The notes beneath the pieces were generated by a model. That model did not search any database and was not told the origin of the DNA. It saw nothing but the letters and a program-made list of their open reading frames with translations. From Candidatus Cloacimonadales bacterium (GTDB lineage Bacteria; Cloacimonadota; Cloacimonadia; Cloacimonadales; JAFGVF01): a stretch of DNA of 64,000 nt. The stretch is taken from positions 448,001-512,000 of the forward strand of contig CAXXOU010000003.1 of the NCBI GenBank assembly GCA_963677495.2. Reading direction: 5' to 3'. The translations under genes were made by a program, and so were the position numbers. Shown here in pieces: positions 5,414 to 15,611 of this stretch (its first letter is position 1; each line of letters starts with the position of its first letter).

Positions 5414-6622
5414 ATGATAATTAAAACTAATATATTGAACCCAATTGATAGAGAGACCTGTGAGTATAAGAGAGATGTTTATCTTACTCTAGCAGGAGGA
5501 AAGATAATATCAATAACAGATAGAATATCCGGTAAATTACCATATCATGACTACAGTGAATTTATATGTCTTCCTGGGATGATCGATTGTCATACTCATC
5601 TTTCACAATGGCGTATTAGAGGACGTTATAAAGATAACCTACTGGAGTGGTTGGATAGTTATGTGTTTCCAGAAGAGGGAAGATCATTTAATCCTGAATT
5701 TGCCAGAAAAACAGCTATAGATTTCTTTAGAAATCTGATATTGAACGGTACTACTACTGCTGCTGTTTATGTCTCAGCCTCTAAACTAGCTACTGAAATT
5801 GCCTTTGAAGAGGGAGTTAAATCAGGACTTAGACTCATCATGGGACAGGTTCAAATGGATAGAAATGCACCAGATTACCTACTACAAGATACAGAAGAAA
5901 GTCTGACTGATGCTGAGGAGCTTTGCCATAAATGGAACCAATTCACACCATTGATGCATTATGCCTTTACTCCTAGATTTGCTATAACATGTACAGGAGA
6001 ACTGATGAGTGGAATTAGTACTCTATCTGAAAAATATCATGCAAGAATTCAAACTCATCTTTCCGAGAATCTTAATGAACTGAAGAAAGTTGAAGAACTG
6101 TTCCCTGACTGTGAGAATTACACAGAAGTGTATGATAAGCATGGTTTGGTTACACCTCGAACTATCTTTGGTCATGCAATCCACTTATATGACTCAGAGG
6201 TTAAACTCTTAGCTGAGAAGGGAGCTAGAATTGCTCATTGTCCTGACTCGAACTTCTTTCTAAACTCAGGTCAATTCAAACTGGATAGGTTACAGAGTGC
6301 AGGTTTAGAGATTGGTCTTGCTTCTGATGTTGCAGCAGGAACTACATTGGACATGTTCTACCATCAGCGAATGATGCTTTATAGACAAAACACAGGGTTG
6401 TTAAGGCTCCCAGAGCTGTTCTATACTGCTACTTTAGGTGGAGCTAGAGCACTTAACCTCGAAGAGGAGACAGGCTCAATAACTGTTGGTAAGTCTGCTG
6501 ATTTAATCTTCATGGATATTAAGAACACAAAGAATGCTGATAGTATTCTTTCGGAGTTAATCTTTATATCACCATATCCATCTGTAAGCAAAGTAATGGT
6601 GGCAGGAAAAGAGGTTACTTAA
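5414..6622 (+). CDS. guaD: Guanine deaminase (amidohydrolase family)
   Basis: PGMIDCHTHLSQ, LLEWLDSYVFPEE, TPRFAITCT, IQTHLSEN, HCPDSNFFLNSG, GLASDVAAG. Confidence 0.88.
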   Translation: MIIKTNILNPIDRETCEYKRDVYLTLAGGKIISITDRISGKLPYHDYSEFICLPGMIDCHTHLSQWRIRGRYKDNLLEWLDSYVFPEEGRSFNPEFARKTAIDFFRNLILNGTTTAAVYVSASKLATEIAFEEGVKSGLRLIMGQVQMDRNAPDYLLQDTEESLTDAEELCHKWNQFTPLMHYAFTPRFAITCTGELMSGISTLSEKYHARIQTHLSENLNELKKVEELFPDCENYTEVYDKHGLVTPRTIFGHAIHLYDSEVKLLAEKGARIAHCPDSNFFLNSGQFKLDRLQSAGLEIGLASDVAAGTTLDMFYHQRMMLYRQNTGLLRLPELFYTATLGGARALNLEEETGSITVGKSADLIFMDIKNTKNADSILSELIFISPYPSVSKVMVAGKEVT

Positions 6623-8684
6623 CTCTGATAATCTTACCTGATTGGTTACCTGAATCTGTCTTAATACTGTAGAAATATACACCTGATGGAGATGCACCTA
6701 AAGCTTTCGTATCCAACTTATATTCTCTTTGATTAAGCTCATCACCTTTATAGACTAATCTTCCTTTAATATCATAAATCTCTATTTTTCTGATAAGCTG
6801 ATTCTCAGACTTAACGTACAAGTTTTCAGCAAAAGGCATCGGGTATAGCTGTAGTGATGTTGCCGGTTGTACTTGCTCATCAATAGAAATCGCATTATCG
6901 AACTCAACAGCCCCTATATCTATGAAGTTATCAACTATTCTCTCGTTTCCATGGAAATCTGTTTCAGGAATCATAAGGTACTGAGGATTCAATGTACCTG
7001 CATTTATAGCTAATGATACTTGATTTGGCATATAGTAGTATTCTTCTTCTCCCAAAAATCCTGTTGAAGCATTAATGTTTGTGCCATCTGCAATCGCCTG
7101 ATTCACAAGGTTGTACTTCGTATAGAAAGGCTTACAGTTAACTAATTGCATATCTTCAATATATGCTGTTGTGTTATTTGTTACAATGTTATTGTAGAGC
7201 AATGGCTTTGAGTGAAAAGCATGTATAGCAGATGTTTTATAGTAAGTATCAGGGTTGATTACTGCATTGTTTGTAATAGTGTTGTTTAAGAGTTTAGGAA
7301 ACGCATAGTCAGCTCTCAAGAATGAGCCACTAACAAGTGCATAATTGTTGTATGCGACGTTGTTAGTAATTCTGACTGCTGATTCTTTAAAACAGGCAAT
7401 AACTGCACCATTACTTGCCAAGTTTTGCGTAAAAGAACAGTTCTCTATTGTTAACTTATTGAAGCTCTCAACATAAAATACACCACCATGCCCGGAATAA
7501 GCTTCACCTTCTATTGCTATATTCTTACTATTTGCAAAGTCACAATACTTGAAACTGGATGCTTCGTTTTGCTCAGAAGTATTATTAAACCTAATACCAT
7601 TCCAAGCAAACTCAGTATTCTCGTCAGGAGTGAAACTGGCACTACTCATGTGGTTGAAGTCAATCCTATTCTCGGGAGTACCTTCTGCAATAATTGCACC
7701 TTGGACATCTATATGATAATGTCCGGTAAACATGATCGTTGCACCCGGCTCTATGATAAGTGTGCTTCCTGATTCTATTGTGAAATCACTATCAATGTAG
7801 TGGATACCACCATCCCATACCGTATCTTCGGTAATGTTATCAATTCTAGCATTAGTTTCTGTTGGCAACACAAATGACTGGCATCCATAATCTGTAGCTG
7901 CGGAGTTCTGCTGATGACTAAAATTACCGTTAAAAGGATCAATAAGTTCAGGATCAAGACCAGAGATATTACTTGCTTCCGTACCGGAACCCGGCCACGG
8001 ATAAGGCTCGAATCAGCCATAATCGCAATACAATGTGAAGTGATATAATGGGTTTTGGTTTATTGCATCCCTAGAGAAGTAGGACCAGTTATCGTAGATT
8101 TGAGATGCAGGATTTGATGTACCTTGATAACTTATAGCAAAATTAGCACCAGTAGTTAAGAATACGTTTTGTTCACTGTTATATTGCAGAAAGTCATCTC
8201 CTGTGTTAACAGCATTAAAGAAGATATTGTTTCTAATTGTAATATCGTTTCCACAAGCTAAGGTTCTAATTGCATAGTCATCATTGTTATAGAAAGTAAC
8301 ATACTCAACTAAACCTGAAGGATATATTTCACTACCCGAGGATGAATTTCCATAAAACCTAAGATTACCATTGATTATAACACAATCCAATATCTCGAAC
8401 TGGATATCTGTATAAGCAATCATGATTCTTTCATGTTGTAAATCAATGACAGCACCATTCCCTATAATTTTAGTATTTACTCCAAAGTCTCCGTAAAAGA
8501 TGTCAGTCTCATTATCGAAAGTTTGCCCGAGATGCAATCCACCATAGTATGTAACACCTTGCTGAAGCACAACAAGTTTATCAAATCCTTCACCGGATCC
8601 GGCTGCATCATATGCCTCTGAAAGACGTATACTATTTAAACTTAAAGCAATTAAAGATATTACGACCAGCATTAGTTTTCTCAT
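6615..8684 (-). CDS. Secreted right-handed beta-helix protein with C-terminal T9SS-type-A/FlgD-like sorting domain; in-frame TGA at 8013-8015, candidate selenoprotein (~689 aa)
   Basis: ORFs 8696-8013 and 7871-6615 are in the same frame, and the 47 codons between them have no stop (FEPYPWPGSGTEASNISGLDPELIDPFNGNFSHQQNSAATDYGCQSF). The signal peptide is only on the first part and the sorting domain (LYPMPF...IYDIKGRLV...SGVYFY) only on the second. A SECIS-like hairpin follows the TGA. Confidence 0.75.
7978..8001 (-). promoter_or_regulatory. Putative bacterial SECIS element
   Basis: TCCGT-G-GCCGG-GTT-CCGGT-ACGGA hairpin starting 11 nt after the in-frame TGA; the apical loop starts with GU, 22 nt after the TGA. 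Confidence 0.65.
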
Positions 8685-8686
8685 AA

Positions 8687-9613
8687 TCACTCCCAAATTG
8701 CAACTTCAATCAGACCACTACTATCAGCTTTTCCTCTAAACATCCCTAATGAGTTATAAGGCATTACAATAGTTCCATTGTTGTCAATGGCTATGAATCC
8801 TCCAGCTCCATCAGGAAGCTCACCAATAGTATAATCAGCAGCATCTTCAAGTCCTAATCCAAGATATGTCATCTTAGCATGAATATCATAAGCAGTACAG
8901 CCGGTCATAAATAGCTCTCCGATTCCTGTGCAAGAAACAGCACATGTTTCATTGTTCGCATAAGTTCCTGCCCCAATAATTGGAGTATCACCGATACGCA
9001 TGAATTTCTTGTTAGTCATTCCACCGGTCGAAGTAGAAGTTGCAAGGTTACCTTTAATATCCAACGCAACAGCACCAACAGTACCGAGTGAGACATTGCT
9101 ATCAGCGGTATGATCAAGAATAATCTTACCTTCTGATTTTGCCTTTAACCAAGCATTATACCGATATTCAGTATCAAAATAGTAGTTCTCTACCTGTTCA
9201 AGTCCGTGTAGACTTGCAAACTTATCTGCTCCATCTCCACATAGTAAAATATGCTCGGATTCTTCCATAACTTTTTTTGCAAGTAGGATAGGATTCTTAG
9301 TAGTTTTCACTCCTGTAACTGCTCCACACTTAAGATTATTACCATCCATAAGCGAAGCATCCAACTCATGTTTTCCATCTGCATTATATACAGCTCCCAC
9401 ACCGGCATTAAATAACGGGTTGTCCTCCATGGACCTTACCGCTTCTATCGTTGCATCCAAAGCTGTACCACCACTTTTCAAAACCAATACACCTGCTTGA
9501 AGAGCTTCAGTTAAGCCAATCTTATAGGATTCTATTCGTTCAGGGTCAGTACTTCTACTGATTACACCGGCACCACCATGTATTGCTATTGCGTATTTAC
9601 TAATCAAACTCAT
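8687..9613 (-). CDS. iaaA: Isoaspartyl peptidase / plant-type L-asparaginase (Ntn hydrolase)
   Basis: IAIHGGAG, EDNPLFNAGVG, GTVGAVALD (Thr nucleophile), TSTGG, RIGDTPIIGAGTYA; start ATG 9613 with GAGGAG RBS. Confidence 0.93.
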   Translation of the reverse strand: MSLISKYAIAIHGGAGVISRSTDPERIESYKIGLTEALQAGVLVLKSGGTALDATIEAVRSMEDNPLFNAGVGAVYNADGKHELDASLMDGNNLKCGAVTGVKTTKNPILLAKKVMEESEHILLCGDGADKFASLHGLEQVENYYFDTEYRYNAWLKAKSEGKIILDHTADSNVSLGTVGAVALDIKGNLATSTSTGGMTNKKFMRIGDTPIIGAGTYANNETCAVSCTGIGELFMTGCTAYDIHAKMTYLGLGLEDAADYTIGELPDGAGGFIAIDNNGTIVMPYNSLGMFRGKADSSGLIEVAIWE

Positions 9614-12969: not shown

Positions 12970-15357
12970 CTACTTCATTAATACCATTTTAGTAGTAATA
13001 CTCTTACCCCTACTCTTCATCTTACAGAAGTATATACCAGATGATACGGTTCTGTTATCATCATCTACTCCGTTCCATACAACCTTATGCTCCCCACTCT
13101 CCATCTCATCATCGCATAGTGTTTTGATTTTTTGTCCTTTCACATTGTAGATAGCAATTTCAACCTTAGATTTTGTGGGTAATGTAAATGATATGTTGGT
13201 TGTAGGATTGAAAGGATTAGGATAATTAGTTAAACTATAGGGTTCAAGACTTATAACATCATCTTGTGAATTGGTATATCCCGGAAACTCATAACACCCA
13301 ATATCGATACTACTACCATAAATCCTATCCTCACCTGCAAGATCATAAAGTGGAAATTCGTAGTTTGCAGGGAATAGGTTTAGATCCGTTGTTCCGGCAT
13401 CTATTGCAGGAGAAGGTCCCCATTCTGTATCATCTCCTGATAAGTAATAATACTCAGGGAATGCTGGATCACCACCAACAAATAAGGGGTCTGTTCCAAC
13501 TAGGTTGTTAGCACCAAAGTTAATAGGATCACCATTAAAAACAGTGTACAAGTTCTCTGAATCTGTAAAAAGACAATTATCTACATTACTATTACCTGAT
13601 AGGTCTAGCTGATAAGTATGACCTTCGTTGTTTGCAAAGATGCAATTATAGACATTGAGAGAATCTGATGTTGTTATGAAATTCTCATATACACCTTGAT
13701 TGTTAGCAAAAGTTGTATTCAGGATATTTATTGATTCGTAATCACCAAACATCAATATAGTATATGCCGATCCACTTGTAGTATTATTGGAGTAAAGACA
13801 ATTATCAATAAACAAACTAGGATTAGAATTAACATCATTATGTTGAAAAGTAGAAGTATAATCGGAAACATTAAGATAGTTATTTATGAAGGTACTGTTT
13901 TTTATTCTGCAAGTATCCTTAATCGATAGATTATAAACACCCCAAGCTGGTGTTGTACCTATTTGCTCAGTAATACAATCACGTACATATAGAGAATCAA
14001 TTTCTAAGTTGAGTAAGCCTAAATTTAAACCGGAATTAATATATGATGTATTGTTAATTAGAGATACATTGCTGATTCTTAAATCTCCTTCATAACCATT
14101 AATTGACATCGCCCCAGTAAAAAGTCCAAGATTACTGTCTCTAATTACAACATTATCTATATCTGAGTGATAAGCAGTGTATGATCCTAACCCATGTCCG
14201 TTATTAACAGTTATTGATAGATTCTCTATAGACATATTAGATTGATGTGAACCATAGGAGATACAAGCACCTACAGGTGCCTCTACCATAGAATCAGCAA
14301 AGAGATGTGTCATTTCCGGTGATACTCCATGTAATGTTGTGTTTTCTTTTAAAACAATTGTTGTATTACAGCCATTAATTATCTCAGTAAAGTCTCCCTC
14401 TAAGAGATGAACTGTTAATGGATTATCTACTGTTGGATTGATTTGCTGAAAAGCCTTCCAAGTTGTTCTTAAAGGATCTTCAGGAGTCAAACCGGAATTC
14501 GTATCATCCCCGTTCATAGAAACATATAAATCACTTTCAACAGGTGTTATATATGATTGCTGTATATCAAAAACTGGGAAAGGATTGGTTATATCAGTAT
14601 AATCATAATCAAATATATTTACGTAATACTTTGATGGTTCATGCCAAGTAAACATGTCTAAATAAATATCTTGTGTGAAAAAATGATTGTAACTCCATCC
14701 AATATCCATACCTTGAGGACTATAGTTATTGTAGATACTACAGCGATTGACTTGATCAAAAATAACATTGGAATGATCAGTCCAAGAGCTTGCAAAGCAA
14801 ACTCCTCCACCAATACATCTACCAATATTGTTGAAAATGTTAACATTGCTAATATTGCACTGTATATTGTCGTGACCAAACCAAATACCTCCTCCTTTCG
14901 ATGACTTATTCTCAAAAATGTTACAATTTTTAATAATTATATCAATATTGCTATAGCAAAAGATCCCTCCACCAAACACTTGATCACTATTTATATCATG
15001 ACTATCCCAGAATATATGCCCACTTCCACCTGTGATTGATAATCCTCTTATCTCACAATTAGTTAGGTTTTCATAACATGAAATAGTGGAATCTTCATTT
15101 AAACTACCATTGATTATAGTTAAACTTACATAGGTTGTATCTCCTGTAGTAGCTTCCAATGAACACAATGAGACATTAGATTTATTACTAAACTCAATAT
15201 TCTCATAATACATACCGGGATGTACAATCACTGTGTCACCTGCTACAGAGAAATCAATGCCTTCTTGAATCGTTGTGTAATCCATGGGGATATTAATAAT
15301 GTTGGCGAATAGTAGAATTGGTAAAAGCATTAGTAGAAATAGAAAGATTCTTCTCAT
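12970..15357 (-). CDS. Secreted parallel beta-helix protein (DUF1565-like motif) with T9SS-type-A/FlgD-like C-terminal domain
   Basis: Signal peptide MRRIFLFLL..., IPMDYTTIQEGID, LYVSMNGDDTNSG, SPAIDAG, IDIGCYE, NYPNPFNPTTNISF...SSGIYFCKM; start ATG 15357. Confidence 0.85.
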   Translation of the reverse strand: MRRIFLFLLMLLPILLFANIINIPMDYTTIQEGIDFSVAGDTVIVHPGMYYENIEFSNKSNVSLCSLEATTGDTTYVSLTIINGSLNEDSTISCYENLTNCEIRGLSITGGSGHIFWDSHDINSDQVFGGGIFCYSNIDIIIKNCNIFENKSSKGGGIWFGHDNIQCNISNVNIFNNIGRCIGGGVCFASSWTDHSNVIFDQVNRCSIYNNYSPQGMDIGWSYNHFFTQDIYLDMFTWHEPSKYYVNIFDYDYTDITNPFPVFDIQQSYITPVESDLYVSMNGDDTNSGLTPEDPLRTTWKAFQQINPTVDNPLTVHLLEGDFTEIINGCNTTIVLKENTTLHGVSPEMTHLFADSMVEAPVGACISYGSHQSNMSIENLSITVNNGHGLGSYTAYHSDIDNVVIRDSNLGLFTGAMSINGYEGDLRISNVSLINNTSYINSGLNLGLLNLEIDSLYVRDCITEQIGTTPAWGVYNLSIKDTCRIKNSTFINNYLNVSDYTSTFQHNDVNSNPSLFIDNCLYSNNTTSGSAYTILMFGDYESINILNTTFANNQGVYENFITTSDSLNVYNCIFANNEGHTYQLDLSGNSNVDNCLFTDSENLYTVFNGDPINFGANNLVGTDPLFVGGDPAFPEYYYLSGDDTEWGPSPAIDAGTTDLNLFPANYEFPLYDLAGEDRIYGSSIDIGCYEFPGYTNSQDDVISLEPYSLTNYPNPFNPTTNISFTLPTKSKVEIAIYNVKGQKIKTLCDDEMESGEHKVVWNGVDDDNRTVSSGIYFCKMKSRGKSITTKMVLMK

Positions 15358-15611
15358 AATCACAACCTTTTCAGGACACAATATTTGGAAGCTTCTGCAG
15401 ATTCAAAATATTGGGTCAATGTCTTTTAGTTTATTCACTACATATATTTTCTATGTGTCAAGAATAAAAGCAAGACTTCTGGTTTATTCTTGCAGAAGAT
15501 TAACTATCATAGATTAAATTCAGGTCAGTGGAGCTTGCCGACTTCGTCGTCACAGCATCAGTCTTCGTTAAAAACTACGCCCCGACAGGACTCGGGAGAG
15601 TCGCAGTACAA

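Follow-up and report, generated by a model that had tools for sequence, protein, structure and literature searches.

The 64,000-nucleotide stretch of Candidatus Cloacimonadales DNA analysed here (hereafter the window) carries on its minus strand, at 6615..8684, what is very probably a genuine, single selenoprotein gene, read in one frame from the ATG at 8684 (the likely start, with GGGAG a few bases 5′ of it) to the TAA at 6617-6615 and predicted to encode 689 residues. The minus-strand frame 8696..6615 is open but for one TGA at 8013..8015, just 3′ of TGC GAT TAT GGC (C-D-Y-G); this apparent stop, which splits the gene into two open reading frames (ORFs), almost certainly encodes selenocysteine (Sec), at residue 224. 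The initial annotation had joined the two ORFs through this codon, and its geometry was borne out by recounting: the TGA is separated from the GTG of ORF 7871-6615 by exactly 47 stop-free in-frame codons (8012..7872), the proposed CxxxU site falls at residue 224 of a 689-aa product as estimated, and the second D-Y-G with Cys, placed ~44 codons on, corresponds to residues 265-268 (TGC at 7883-7881), 44 codons past the TGA. The neighbouring genes are those for asparaginase, recX, recA, LigT and adenosine kinase upstream and an amidohydrolase downstream, and nothing was common to the flanks of 31 orthologue loci.

At the N-terminus, a putative signal peptide of about 22 residues (MRKLMLVVISLIALSLNSIRLS; 8619..8684, minus strand) was read from the sequence and from alignment A4, with its cleavage site inferred; a hydrophobic N-terminus was seen by eye in the window protein and its orthologues alike, and the mature protein is predicted to begin near a conserved [ST]-L-[KR]-E-x-[YF]-[DE] motif. 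Residues about 20-272 (7869..8627, minus strand), which include the Sec site, were modelled by AlphaFold2 on the 35-sequence alignment A4 as a right-handed beta-helix (pLDDT 88.4, pTM 0.85), with the cap residues 225-272 at pLDDT 86-97. The cap motif D-P-x-L-x-D-P-x-N-G-D-Y...S-P-A is typical for right-handed beta-helix domains, and the single match of a PDB sequence search with profile A4 (9rx2_A, E 0.0053) lies over this motif. The best VIA-align match of the Sec domain was the PL6 alginate lyase 7dmk_A (Z 14.2, rmsd 4.1, 196 residues), with many others at Z 10-13, including NosD 7o0y_A (Z 10.9); 91 chains scored Z of at least 8, and among the 50 listed nearly all were beta-helix proteins. 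Foldseek against the PDB gave no match for this domain at E ≤0.001, and no Pfam or NCBIfam (release 20.0) family scored above its cut-off over the domain in the window protein or in any of the 35 members searched, with the Beta_helix and DUF5123 models of Pfam matching weakly only. A NosD-like periplasmic beta-helix protein was considered as a candidate and rejected: the NosD model PF05048 had no match in the window protein (a few relatives matched weakly, below or near the cut-off), and nosF- or nosY-like neighbours were found neither in the window nor at the 31 orthologue loci.

A second beta-helix region with a choice-of-anchor Q type cap follows at 6885..7817 (minus strand), where the window protein scored 26.0 bits against NCBIfam choice_anch_Q (cut-off 25) and 24.1 bits against Pfam Beta_helix, under the cut-off of 25.9; Beta_helix is present in the C-terminal parts of 17 of 28 orthologues. 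The gene ends with a type A C-terminal sorting domain for secretion by the type IX system (T9SS; 6627..6848, minus strand), matched by PF18962 (41.7 bits, cut-off 27) and TIGR04183 (41.7 bits, cut-off 23), so that the sorting domain ascribed to the second half from the letters alone was recovered by both databases. Components of the T9SS machinery were found in the genome, SprA at 431 bits summed and PorU at 616 bits. The tails vary among orthologues (FlgD_ig or Por_Secre_tail in 20 of 28, dockerin in three Planctomycetota genes). In one relative the Sec domain is preceded by two fused rhodanese domains, an arrangement consistent with a role in the transfer of sulfur or selenium.

The codon at the Sec column was compared among 90 distinct orthologues from Cloacimonadota, Planctomycetota, Eisenbacteria, Acidobacteriota, Gemmatimonadota, Armatimonadota and Bacteroidia MAGs. 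After de-duplication it was TGA in 89 and Cys (TGC) in one, a C-E-Y-G-C form (unusually few for Cys), and neither TAA, TAG nor a frame change was found at this column among the homologues compared, which answers the homologue comparison proposed earlier in favour of Sec. Within the order, TGA was found in 49 of 53 match rows, with one Cys and three rows ending short of the column; in a separate count of aligned loci, TGA occupied the column in 79 of 80, under seven phylum labels. The partner codon, four codons before Sec (Cys220, TGC at 8025..8027, minus strand, in the window), was Cys in 82 and TGA in eight of the 90 distinct orthologues, with no third residue. These eight UxxxU forms strengthen the original CxxxU proposal; within the order, two-TGA forms are spread over four families. 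Other positions near the site are also conserved: His215 (8040..8042, minus strand), nine residues before Sec, is His in 89 of 90; Cys268 (7881..7883, minus strand), in the conserved G-Y-G-C-Q at the end of the first domain, is Cys in 89 of 90, the remaining one being unreadable; and Cys101 (TGT, 8382..8384, minus strand) is invariant in all 35 sequences of A4.

Full-length orthologues with 37-55% identity cover both halves of the gene. Protein sequence is conserved on either side of the TGA in alignments A3 and A4, and this conservation continues unbroken past the TGA and across the 47 ‘intergenic' codons, where P227, N239, P245, A263, G267 and C268 are invariant in A4; purifying selection is evident on both halves. 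A search for protein homologues of similar length returned the gene's own C-terminal half only, full-length Cys forms being absent.

A SECIS-like hairpin is located inside the coding sequence at 7978..8001 (minus strand), 11 nt past the TGA, with two 5-bp stems separated by a bulged G (UCCGU-g-GCCGG/GUU/CCGGU-ACGGA) and an apical GUU loop that begins 25 nt from the U of the UGA. The initial annotation had singled out this hairpin; its 11-nt spacer stood, as did its prominence within the AT-rich gene (the 34-nt window 3′ of the TGA ranks fourth in stability among 650 codon-spaced windows), but as a single sequence it was not significant, with z-scores of −0.83 and −1.03 against shuffles of the same GC-rich letters, 44 and 36 of 200 of which folded equally well. 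A preset rule was applied across the family, requiring at least five perfect pairs of which at least three are G-C, a loop of 3-7 nt with a G in its first two positions and a loop start at +16 to +37. It was passed by 77 of the 89 distinct genes versus 15.6% of control codons, and by 32 of the 37 genes below 50% GC versus 2.6% of controls; 12 of 89 failed this strict form. The stability rank of the post-TGA window had a median at the 5.9th percentile across 80 loci (33 of 80 under 5%) and was unremarkable in genomes of 60-70% GC.

The suggestion that the hairpin would covary among homologues held for one clade but not for that of the window. The 14 sequences of clade B share a 6-bp helix with an AGUUG loop, 92.9% paired, with compensatory changes at three of six pairs and none of 500 shuffles equalling it; the helix was recovered independently by RNAalifold. 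For the window's own clade, covariation of the 5-bp helix did not exceed chance (the observed values were reached by 82 and 86 of 500 shuffles) and the RNAalifold consensus was weak, at −0.79 kcal mol−1; there the helix is kept by conserved sequence, which also encodes W-x-[D/E]-A, and covariation is not its support. The lone Cys form retains the hairpin, and thus the hairpin alone cannot separate Sec from Cys forms.

The complete Sec machinery, which it had been proposed to look for, is encoded in the same genome: selD (381 bits), selA (535 bits), selB (323 bits) and tRNA-Sec (57 bits) were all above curated cut-offs, with selB adjoining selA and the tRNA carrying a TCA anticodon (called tRNA-SeC by ARAGORN). 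The genome's selD is itself of the Sec type, with an in-frame TGA and a comparable hairpin 3′ of its UGA. TGA is also a normal stop, ending 7 of the 46 window ORFs of at least 200 aa (one of the seven being the N-terminal half of the selenoprotein gene); the upstream asparaginase gene, for example, is TGA-terminated and matched its Pfam model end to end. Among Cloacimonadales genomes that hold the gene, selA was found in 46 of 51 and selB in four of the remaining five, so that 50 of 51 holders have one or the other; the last genome is 64% complete. Conversely, one family of the order (f4) had neither selA nor selB (0 of 98 each) nor the selenoprotein gene (0 of 98), and the tested holder genomes under other phylum labels had selA in five of five. 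The distribution of the gene is thus nested within Sec-decoding genomes, almost without exception.

Several other accounts of the TGA were weighed against Sec. That it is a true stop, leaving two genes (a secreted 223-aa N-fragment and a 418-aa C-terminal protein) or a truncated gene, is how the locus is annotated, and public gene calls are split likewise, as the initial annotation had foreseen: among 1.84 billion representative proteins, the strongest matches were ORFs of 216-231 aa that end at the TGA column and ORFs of 450-540 aa that start just past it, a 225-aa N-half carries the name ‘hypothetical protein', and TGA does serve as an ordinary stop in this genome. This account is nevertheless very improbable: the 47 post-TGA codons are conserved at the protein level across phyla without a conserved start codon, the second ORF has no signal peptide and the first no anchor, the column is never TAA or TAG and its one exception is Cys, and the gene is nearly restricted to genomes with Sec machinery. 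Comparably unlikely is a selenium-free readthrough in which an alternative code, near-cognate decoding or a suppressor tRNA puts a standard residue (Trp, Cys, Gly or Arg) at the TGA. Its attraction lies in database proteins with W at the column, namely P0004, P0156 (W-E-Y-G-W) and the short paralogues P0016, P0023 and P0024; yet P0156 overruns the usual C-terminal end as ‘...MILIK-W-EKKIIS', its caller therefore took every TGA as W, and the W residues of P0156 are TGA codons. A phylum-wide genome search with P0016 returned the main family only, and a metagenome scan found further, more distant short relatives with C-P-[G/S]-TGA-G, the DNA of P0016, P0023 and P0024 not being among them. Decoding as a standard residue is also at odds with the use of TGA as a stop in the same genome, with the sole non-TGA orthologue being Cys (a classic Sec/Cys pair), with the alternation of Cys and TGA at the −4 column, and with the presence of the SECIS-like hairpin together with co-occurrence with selA and selB.

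A pseudogene or a sequencing or assembly error would look much the same at this one locus, as a recent nonsense mutation also leaves one in-frame stop in an otherwise intact gene, and the four public runs whose contigs are identical over 7700-8400 come from one sample, possibly the source of the assembly itself. With TGA at the same codon in 89 distinct orthologues of 30-55% protein identity from several phyla, and with both halves under purifying selection, this explanation has a negligible probability and is in practice refuted by conservation; the same conservation disposed of the assembly error against which the initial annotation had cautioned. A subtler alternative grants that Sec is inserted and makes the UGA mainly a selenium-dependent switch, yielding the full-length anchored protein with selenium and a free 223-residue N-fragment without it, so that regulation rather than Sec chemistry is selected. 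Sec insertion and termination do compete at the UGA of bacterial selenoproteins, and the N-terminal ORF has its own signal peptide, as read from the sequence; but the Cys/Sec alternation at −4, the lone Cys form and the invariant His and Cys near the site argue for a residue that is itself functional, and termination at the UGA would leave the first beta-helix without its conserved cap (residues 225-272), which leaves the switch a slim chance. All of the points on which the initial annotation had staked its reading (assembly error, the homologous codons, the hairpin and the Sec machinery) came out favouring Sec, a reading established to the extent that comparing sequences allows.

Under the Sec reading, the UGA at 8013-8015 would be decoded by the cell's own SelA, SelB, SelD and tRNA-Sec, and the GC-rich hairpin that starts 11 nt past it inside the coding sequence would recruit SelB, as expected from the standard SelB/SECIS system. 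The signal peptide would take the precursor across the inner membrane, and the C-terminal sorting domain would have the type IX secretion system deliver it to the medium or the cell surface; judging from its domains and the machinery present, the 689-residue selenoprotein is thus predicted to be exported. Sec224 would sit near the C-terminal end of the first beta-helix in the motif H-x4-[C/U]-[D/E]-[Y/W/F]-G-U, with the invariant Cys of G-Y-G-C-Q 44 residues on. As no residue other than Cys or Sec occurs at the −4 position, Sec224 and this residue most likely act as a chalcogen pair, which could be a redox-active selenenylsulfide (a diselenide in the UxxxU forms); alternatively, Cys268, Cys101 and His215 could join them in a centre that binds soft metals or sulfur/selenium. 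An extracellular redox or chalcogen-transfer function can be proposed only tentatively. That Sec is nearly obligate, and that Cys and Sec alternate at the partner site, suggests that selenium matters to the chemistry. A bolder and likewise doubtful proposal is that the protein might be the first known representative of a broadly distributed family of selenoenzymes that are displayed at the cell surface and nearly always keep Sec, their His/Cys/Sec/Cys cluster on a beta-helix serving an extracellular chalcogen or soft-metal chemistry in which sulfur cannot replace it. Polysulfide, selenium or metal sulfides outside the cell are candidate substrates for such an enzyme, and the phyla concerned are anaerobe-rich (Cloacimonadota, Phycisphaerae, Eisenbacteria and others).

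The Sec family is widespread in bacteria and absent from current catalogues. Gene callers cut the gene in two in every genome examined and show it as ‘hypothetical protein' halves; annotation therefore hides a conserved and probably exported protein found in at least seven phylum-level groups. Standard selenoprotein discovery relies on Cys/TGA pairs, and a family with one Cys in 90 is of the kind that it may miss; the deep-Sep authors acknowledge that selenoproteins lacking Cys homologues could escape their method (PMC12013277). If confirmed, the family would widen the range of selenoproteins to include a beta-helix fold outside the thioredoxin type and a location on or outside the cells of anaerobic bacteria; if the reading is true, it would be the first selenoprotein known to leave the cell by type IX secretion or to be presented on dockerins, and also the first known with a beta-helix fold. 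A peptide spanning C-D-Y-G-U is a concrete target for metaproteomics of anaerobic digesters and sediments, habitats of these bacteria, and the gene offers a new marker for Sec use in uncultured lineages.

Escherichia coli fdhF is the prototype of a UGA with a downstream in-gene hairpin. The locus resembles such SelB/SECIS-decoded genes (fdhF and the genome's own selD) in its in-frame UGA, in a hairpin within the coding sequence a few nucleotides on with G in the first two loop positions, in the Sec/Cys pair among homologues and in the need for selA, selB, selD and tRNA-Sec; it differs in that its protein is unrelated to any of these enzymes, and hairpin shape and position differ by clade within the family, with loops GGA, GUU and AGUUG starting at +21 to +31. 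A 2026 review (PMC13188914) tabulates 119 prokaryotic selenoprotein families and subfamilies. The Cys partner near Sec is shared with catalogued families (CxxU, UxxC), close double-Sec forms are listed there (UxxU, and UxxxxU in TsoB), and so are extracytoplasmic selenoproteins (a TonB-dependent receptor with FCYXU, outer-membrane and substrate-binding proteins). Catalogued families are, however, mostly thioredoxin-like with many Cys homologues, as against one Cys form in 90 here, and none of those listed in its Table 1 shows a beta-helix fold, a CxxxU motif, or a tail of T9SS or dockerin type; this agrees, as does NCBIfam, with the earlier statement that no selenoprotein family of such architecture was known. 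Literature joining ‘selenoprotein', ‘beta-helix' and ‘bacteria' was unrelated, as judged from titles, and no title among the structurally matched PDB entries describes a Sec-containing protein.

By fold, the Sec domain is like the pectate lyase-like beta-helix proteins (PL6 alginate lyases, pectate lyases, phage tailspikes and NosD), but sequence identity to these is just 9-18% and the fold matches are to generic beta-helices; the comparison with PL1, PL6 and GH28-type enzymes was one of fold, and no family model matched the Sec domain. As a whole, the predicted protein is like type A T9SS cargo (TIGR04183/PF18962), with a sorting domain above cut-off, a putative signal peptide and a genome that encodes SprA, PorU and dozens of cargo genes. 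It differs from other such cargo in that Planctomycetota orthologues end in a dockerin-type rather than a T9SS tail, and in that the cargo module would itself be a selenoprotein.

On the minus strand of the window, a frame running from 8696 (TTG) or 8684 (ATG) to the TAA at 6617-6615 contains a single internal stop, the TGA at 8013-8015, which directly follows the codons TGC GAT TAT GGC and is separated by 47 in-frame codons from the GTG at which the called ORF 7871-6615 begins. This reading of the frame bears out the initial annotation, which had described one in-frame TGA after C-D-Y-G followed by 47 stop-free codons. Because GGGAG sits a few bases upstream of it, ATG 8684 is taken here as the start, giving a predicted 689-residue product whose residue 224 is encoded by the TGA. 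The interval 8684..6615 is very probably a genuine single selenoprotein gene, in which UGA 8013-8015 would be decoded as selenocysteine (Sec) by the standard bacterial mechanism. Logan contigs from four runs are identical to the window over 7700-8400, all of them being from one sample that is possibly the assembly's own source. The gene adjoins an upstream asparaginase gene whose TGA stop (8689-8687) sits between GGGAG and the ATG (window 8687-8696), so the two may be co-transcribed and translationally coupled; the pairing is not kept in other genomes, and neighbouring genes, in the window and at orthologue loci, gave no hint on function. A further T9SS cargo gene (12970-15381, minus strand; 803 aa), 4 kb upstream, matches a beta-helix weakly, contains no TGA in frame and does not resemble the Sec domain.

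When the read-through protein was searched in six frames against 41 related genomes, it matched 16 more full-length orthologue loci at 37-55% identity across residues 1-693; 15 of them contain one or two in-frame TGAs and one contains none. When aligned, their TGAs share one column, the sole exception having Cys (C-E-Y-G-C), and in four of the 16 a second TGA replaces the Cys that stands four codons before it. Within the order, 51 of 203 genomes carry the gene; among 53 match rows, 49 have TGA, one has the Cys form and three fail to span the column. Furthermore, bacteria and archaea, each species represented by a single genome, yielded at least 157 relatives, of which the best 80 are, by record titles, from Cloacimonadota, Planctomycetota/Phycisphaerae, Eisenbacteria, Acidobacteriota, Gemmatimonadota, Armatimonadota and Bacteroidia MAGs, with TGA at the Sec column in 79 and Cys in one. 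After removal of duplicates (identical over 120 nt around the site), 90 distinct genes were retained, and homologues were found to keep TGA (89) or Cys (one, TGC) at the column, as the initial reading had led one to expect. In the same 90 genes, the −4 column (residue 220) is Cys in 82 and TGA in 8, with no other residue; the −9 column (residue 215) is His in 89 and Gln in one; and the +44 column (residue 268) is Cys in 89 and unreadable in one. Moreover, the protein stays conserved without interruption through the TGA and the 47 codons left untranslated in the split annotation, and P227, N239, P245, A263, G267 and C268, all past the TGA, are invariant in 35 sequences from all groups.

The genome (3.4 Mb in 4 contigs, 99.5% complete) encodes the machinery for which the initial annotation had proposed a search (selA, selB, selC and selD): selA (535 bits) with selB (323 bits) adjoining it, selD (381 bits, with one in-frame TGA of its own) and a tRNA-Sec (57 bits against a gathering score of 47; anticodon TCA by ARAGORN). 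selD is itself a selenoprotein gene (contig C1 at ~619.4 kb, minus strand; positions 2370-2400 of searched locus L001) with the site A-A-G-TGA-G-A-K, and the GC-rich hairpin right after its UGA (GGACC/GGG/GGUCC with loop GGG, lengthened by GCUAAG/CUUAGC) provides an internal example of how a SECIS appears in this organism. Across the order, selA is found in 89 of 203 genomes and in 46 of the 51 that hold the selenoprotein gene; of the remaining five, four pass the selB cut-off, and the completeness of the other is 64%. The largest family of the order (98 genomes) has neither selA nor the selenoprotein gene, and selA was present in all five genomes reached via loci titled Phycisphaerales, Acidobacteriota, Eisenbacteria, Bacteroidia and Gemmatimonadetes.

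The SECIS-like hairpin (UCCGU-g-GCCGG/GUU/CCGGU-ACGGA; 8001-7978) lies 11 nt 3′ of the TGA and was recovered in both folds. Against shuffles of its own GC-rich letters it is unremarkable alone (z of −0.83 and −1.03), and the 34-nt window after the TGA ranks 4 of 650 in stability within this 37%-GC gene. The post-TGA sequence varies among clades, yet the hairpin recurs. Clade B comprises 14 Cloacimonadota sequences, the window's gene not among them; its 6-bp helix (loop AGUUG) shows 92.9% pairing and compensatory changes in three of six pairs, none of 500 shuffles matched the observed pairing or covariation, and RNAalifold independently arrives at this helix as well. In the window's own clade (18 sequences), hairpins vary (loops GGA, GGU and GUU), the RNAalifold consensus is weak, and a common 5-bp helix is 88.9% paired yet no better than shuffles (82/500), a conservation that could be due to the encoded W-x-[D/E]-A. 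Under a preset rule (at least five perfect pairs including at least three G-C; loop length 3-7 nt, G within the first two loop positions, loop start at +16 to +37) applied to the 89 distinct genes of that step, 77 passed at the TGA versus 15.6% of these genes' remaining codon positions; for genes below 50% GC, 32 of 37 passed versus 2.6% of control codons. The post-TGA stability rank has its median in the top 4% in AT-rich genomes (17 of 32 under 5%) and is uninformative at 60-70% genome GC; high-GC orthologues show a recurrent GCC-GGU-UCG-GCN (A-G-S-A) forming a GCCG/GUU/CGGC hairpin. The hairpin of the initial annotation thus held up in its position, its recurrence and the covariation of clade B, but not in the single-sequence shuffle test or in covariation within its own clade. 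Its retention in the Cys form (C-E-Y-G-C) would fit a recent Sec-to-Cys change.

That the TGA is a true stop and the locus a split gene is most improbable, as neither the conservation of the 47 codons nor the Cys form would then be explained, nor why the column uses no stop but TGA. Pseudogene and assembly error are excluded by the conservation of the TGA and its flanks. Read-through as Trp was suggested by W at the Sec column in some database proteins of the family and in three short paralogue clusters (~320-355 aa, N-domain plus T9SS tail), the latter seen at protein level. However, the database protein P0156 shows W at its real terminal stop too (‘...MILIK-W-EKKIIS'), which shows that the caller's table set TGA=W; under this table, the public translations of P0004 and P0156 read W-E-Y-G-W at Sec sites. 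In protein sets from metagenomes, a W at a Sec column can be an artefact of the code chosen. In the window's genome a TGA-sense code is excluded and TGA works as an ordinary stop, because the stops of the 46 window ORFs of at least 200 aa are TAA (27), TAG (12) and TGA (7, including the selenoprotein gene's own N-terminal half), and because the TGA-terminated asparaginase covers positions 2-309 of its 309-position Pfam model. Distant relatives on metagenome contigs (L172-L177; ~330-350 aa, N-terminal beta-helix plus T9SS tail) harbour an in-frame TGA at the corresponding place in C-P-[G/S]-U-G, or in one case D-P-E-U-G, and probably form another branch, of CxxU type, within this selenoprotein superfamily.

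In Pfam and NCBIfam searches of the selenoprotein, a C-terminal T9SS sorting domain (41.7 bits), a choice-of-anchor Q cap in the second half and a sub-threshold Beta_helix match there were recognized and nothing else; the translocon SprA and sortase PorU are encoded in the genome. A structure model of the first 290 residues from a 35-sequence cross-phylum alignment (pLDDT 88.4, pTM 0.85; blocks around residues 211-270 at 86-97) predicts a right-handed parallel beta-helix. In the model, the Sec site follows strand 216-219 and immediately precedes a conserved cap, D-P-x-L-x-D-P-x-N-G-D-Y...S-P-A-x-G-Y-G-C-Q. The C-terminal part was compared in 28 orthologues, of which 20 finish with FlgD_ig or Por_Secre_tail and three, all Planctomycetota, with dockerin; dockerin-type ends replace the T9SS domain at Planctomycetota loci L083, L086 and L132 and, as dockerin-like repeats, at Cloacimonadota locus L056. 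The anchoring module is exchanged between lineages while total length stays near 700 residues, and swapped anchors at steady length would fit an extracellular role.

The −4 column holds only Cys or Sec across at least four families of the order, which speaks for residues 220 and 224 acting together. Together with invariant H215, C268 and C101, the site suggests a redox-active selenenylsulfide or a soft-metal/chalcogen-binding centre. Twin-arginine signals are linked to export with complex cofactors; the N-terminal signal peptide, as read from sequence, is not of this type, which fits a thiol/selenol or single-metal site and disfavours a complex cofactor. The relative P0018 (a 528-aa database protein) carries two rhodanese-like domains upstream of a Sec-type beta-helix domain, its ORF ending slightly short of the TGA column, at position 203 of the 285-position profile; this fusion is a weak hint at sulfur or selenium transfer. 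An extracellular redox or chalcogen-handling enzyme is proposed with low confidence.

Family members are publicly named ‘hypothetical protein' or ‘predicted outer membrane repeat protein', and no NCBIfam release 20.0 model matches the Sec domain. A beta-helix, a T9SS or dockerin tail and a CxxxU motif are absent from all 119 families and subfamilies that a review of prokaryotic selenoproteins published in 2026 sets out in its section 7 with Table 1 (PMC13188914). This list and NCBIfam agree with the initial statement that no selenoprotein family of such an architecture is known; term searches of the main texts on BSepDB (PMC13326102) and deep-Sep (PMC12013277) returned no such protein, and full-text search listed nothing that looked relevant joining selenoproteins or selenocysteine with Cloacimonadota, type IX secretion or beta-helix. 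Foldseek with the N-domain model gave no match at E≤0.001; by VIA-align, the model resembles the PL6 alginate lyase C-terminal domain (Z 14.2), many pectate lyases and tailspikes (Z 10-13) and NosD (Z 10.9). The predicted selenoprotein would found, or belong to, a widespread uncatalogued family whose fold, extracellular destination, CxxxU/UxxxU site and almost complete lack of Cys forms are unusual.
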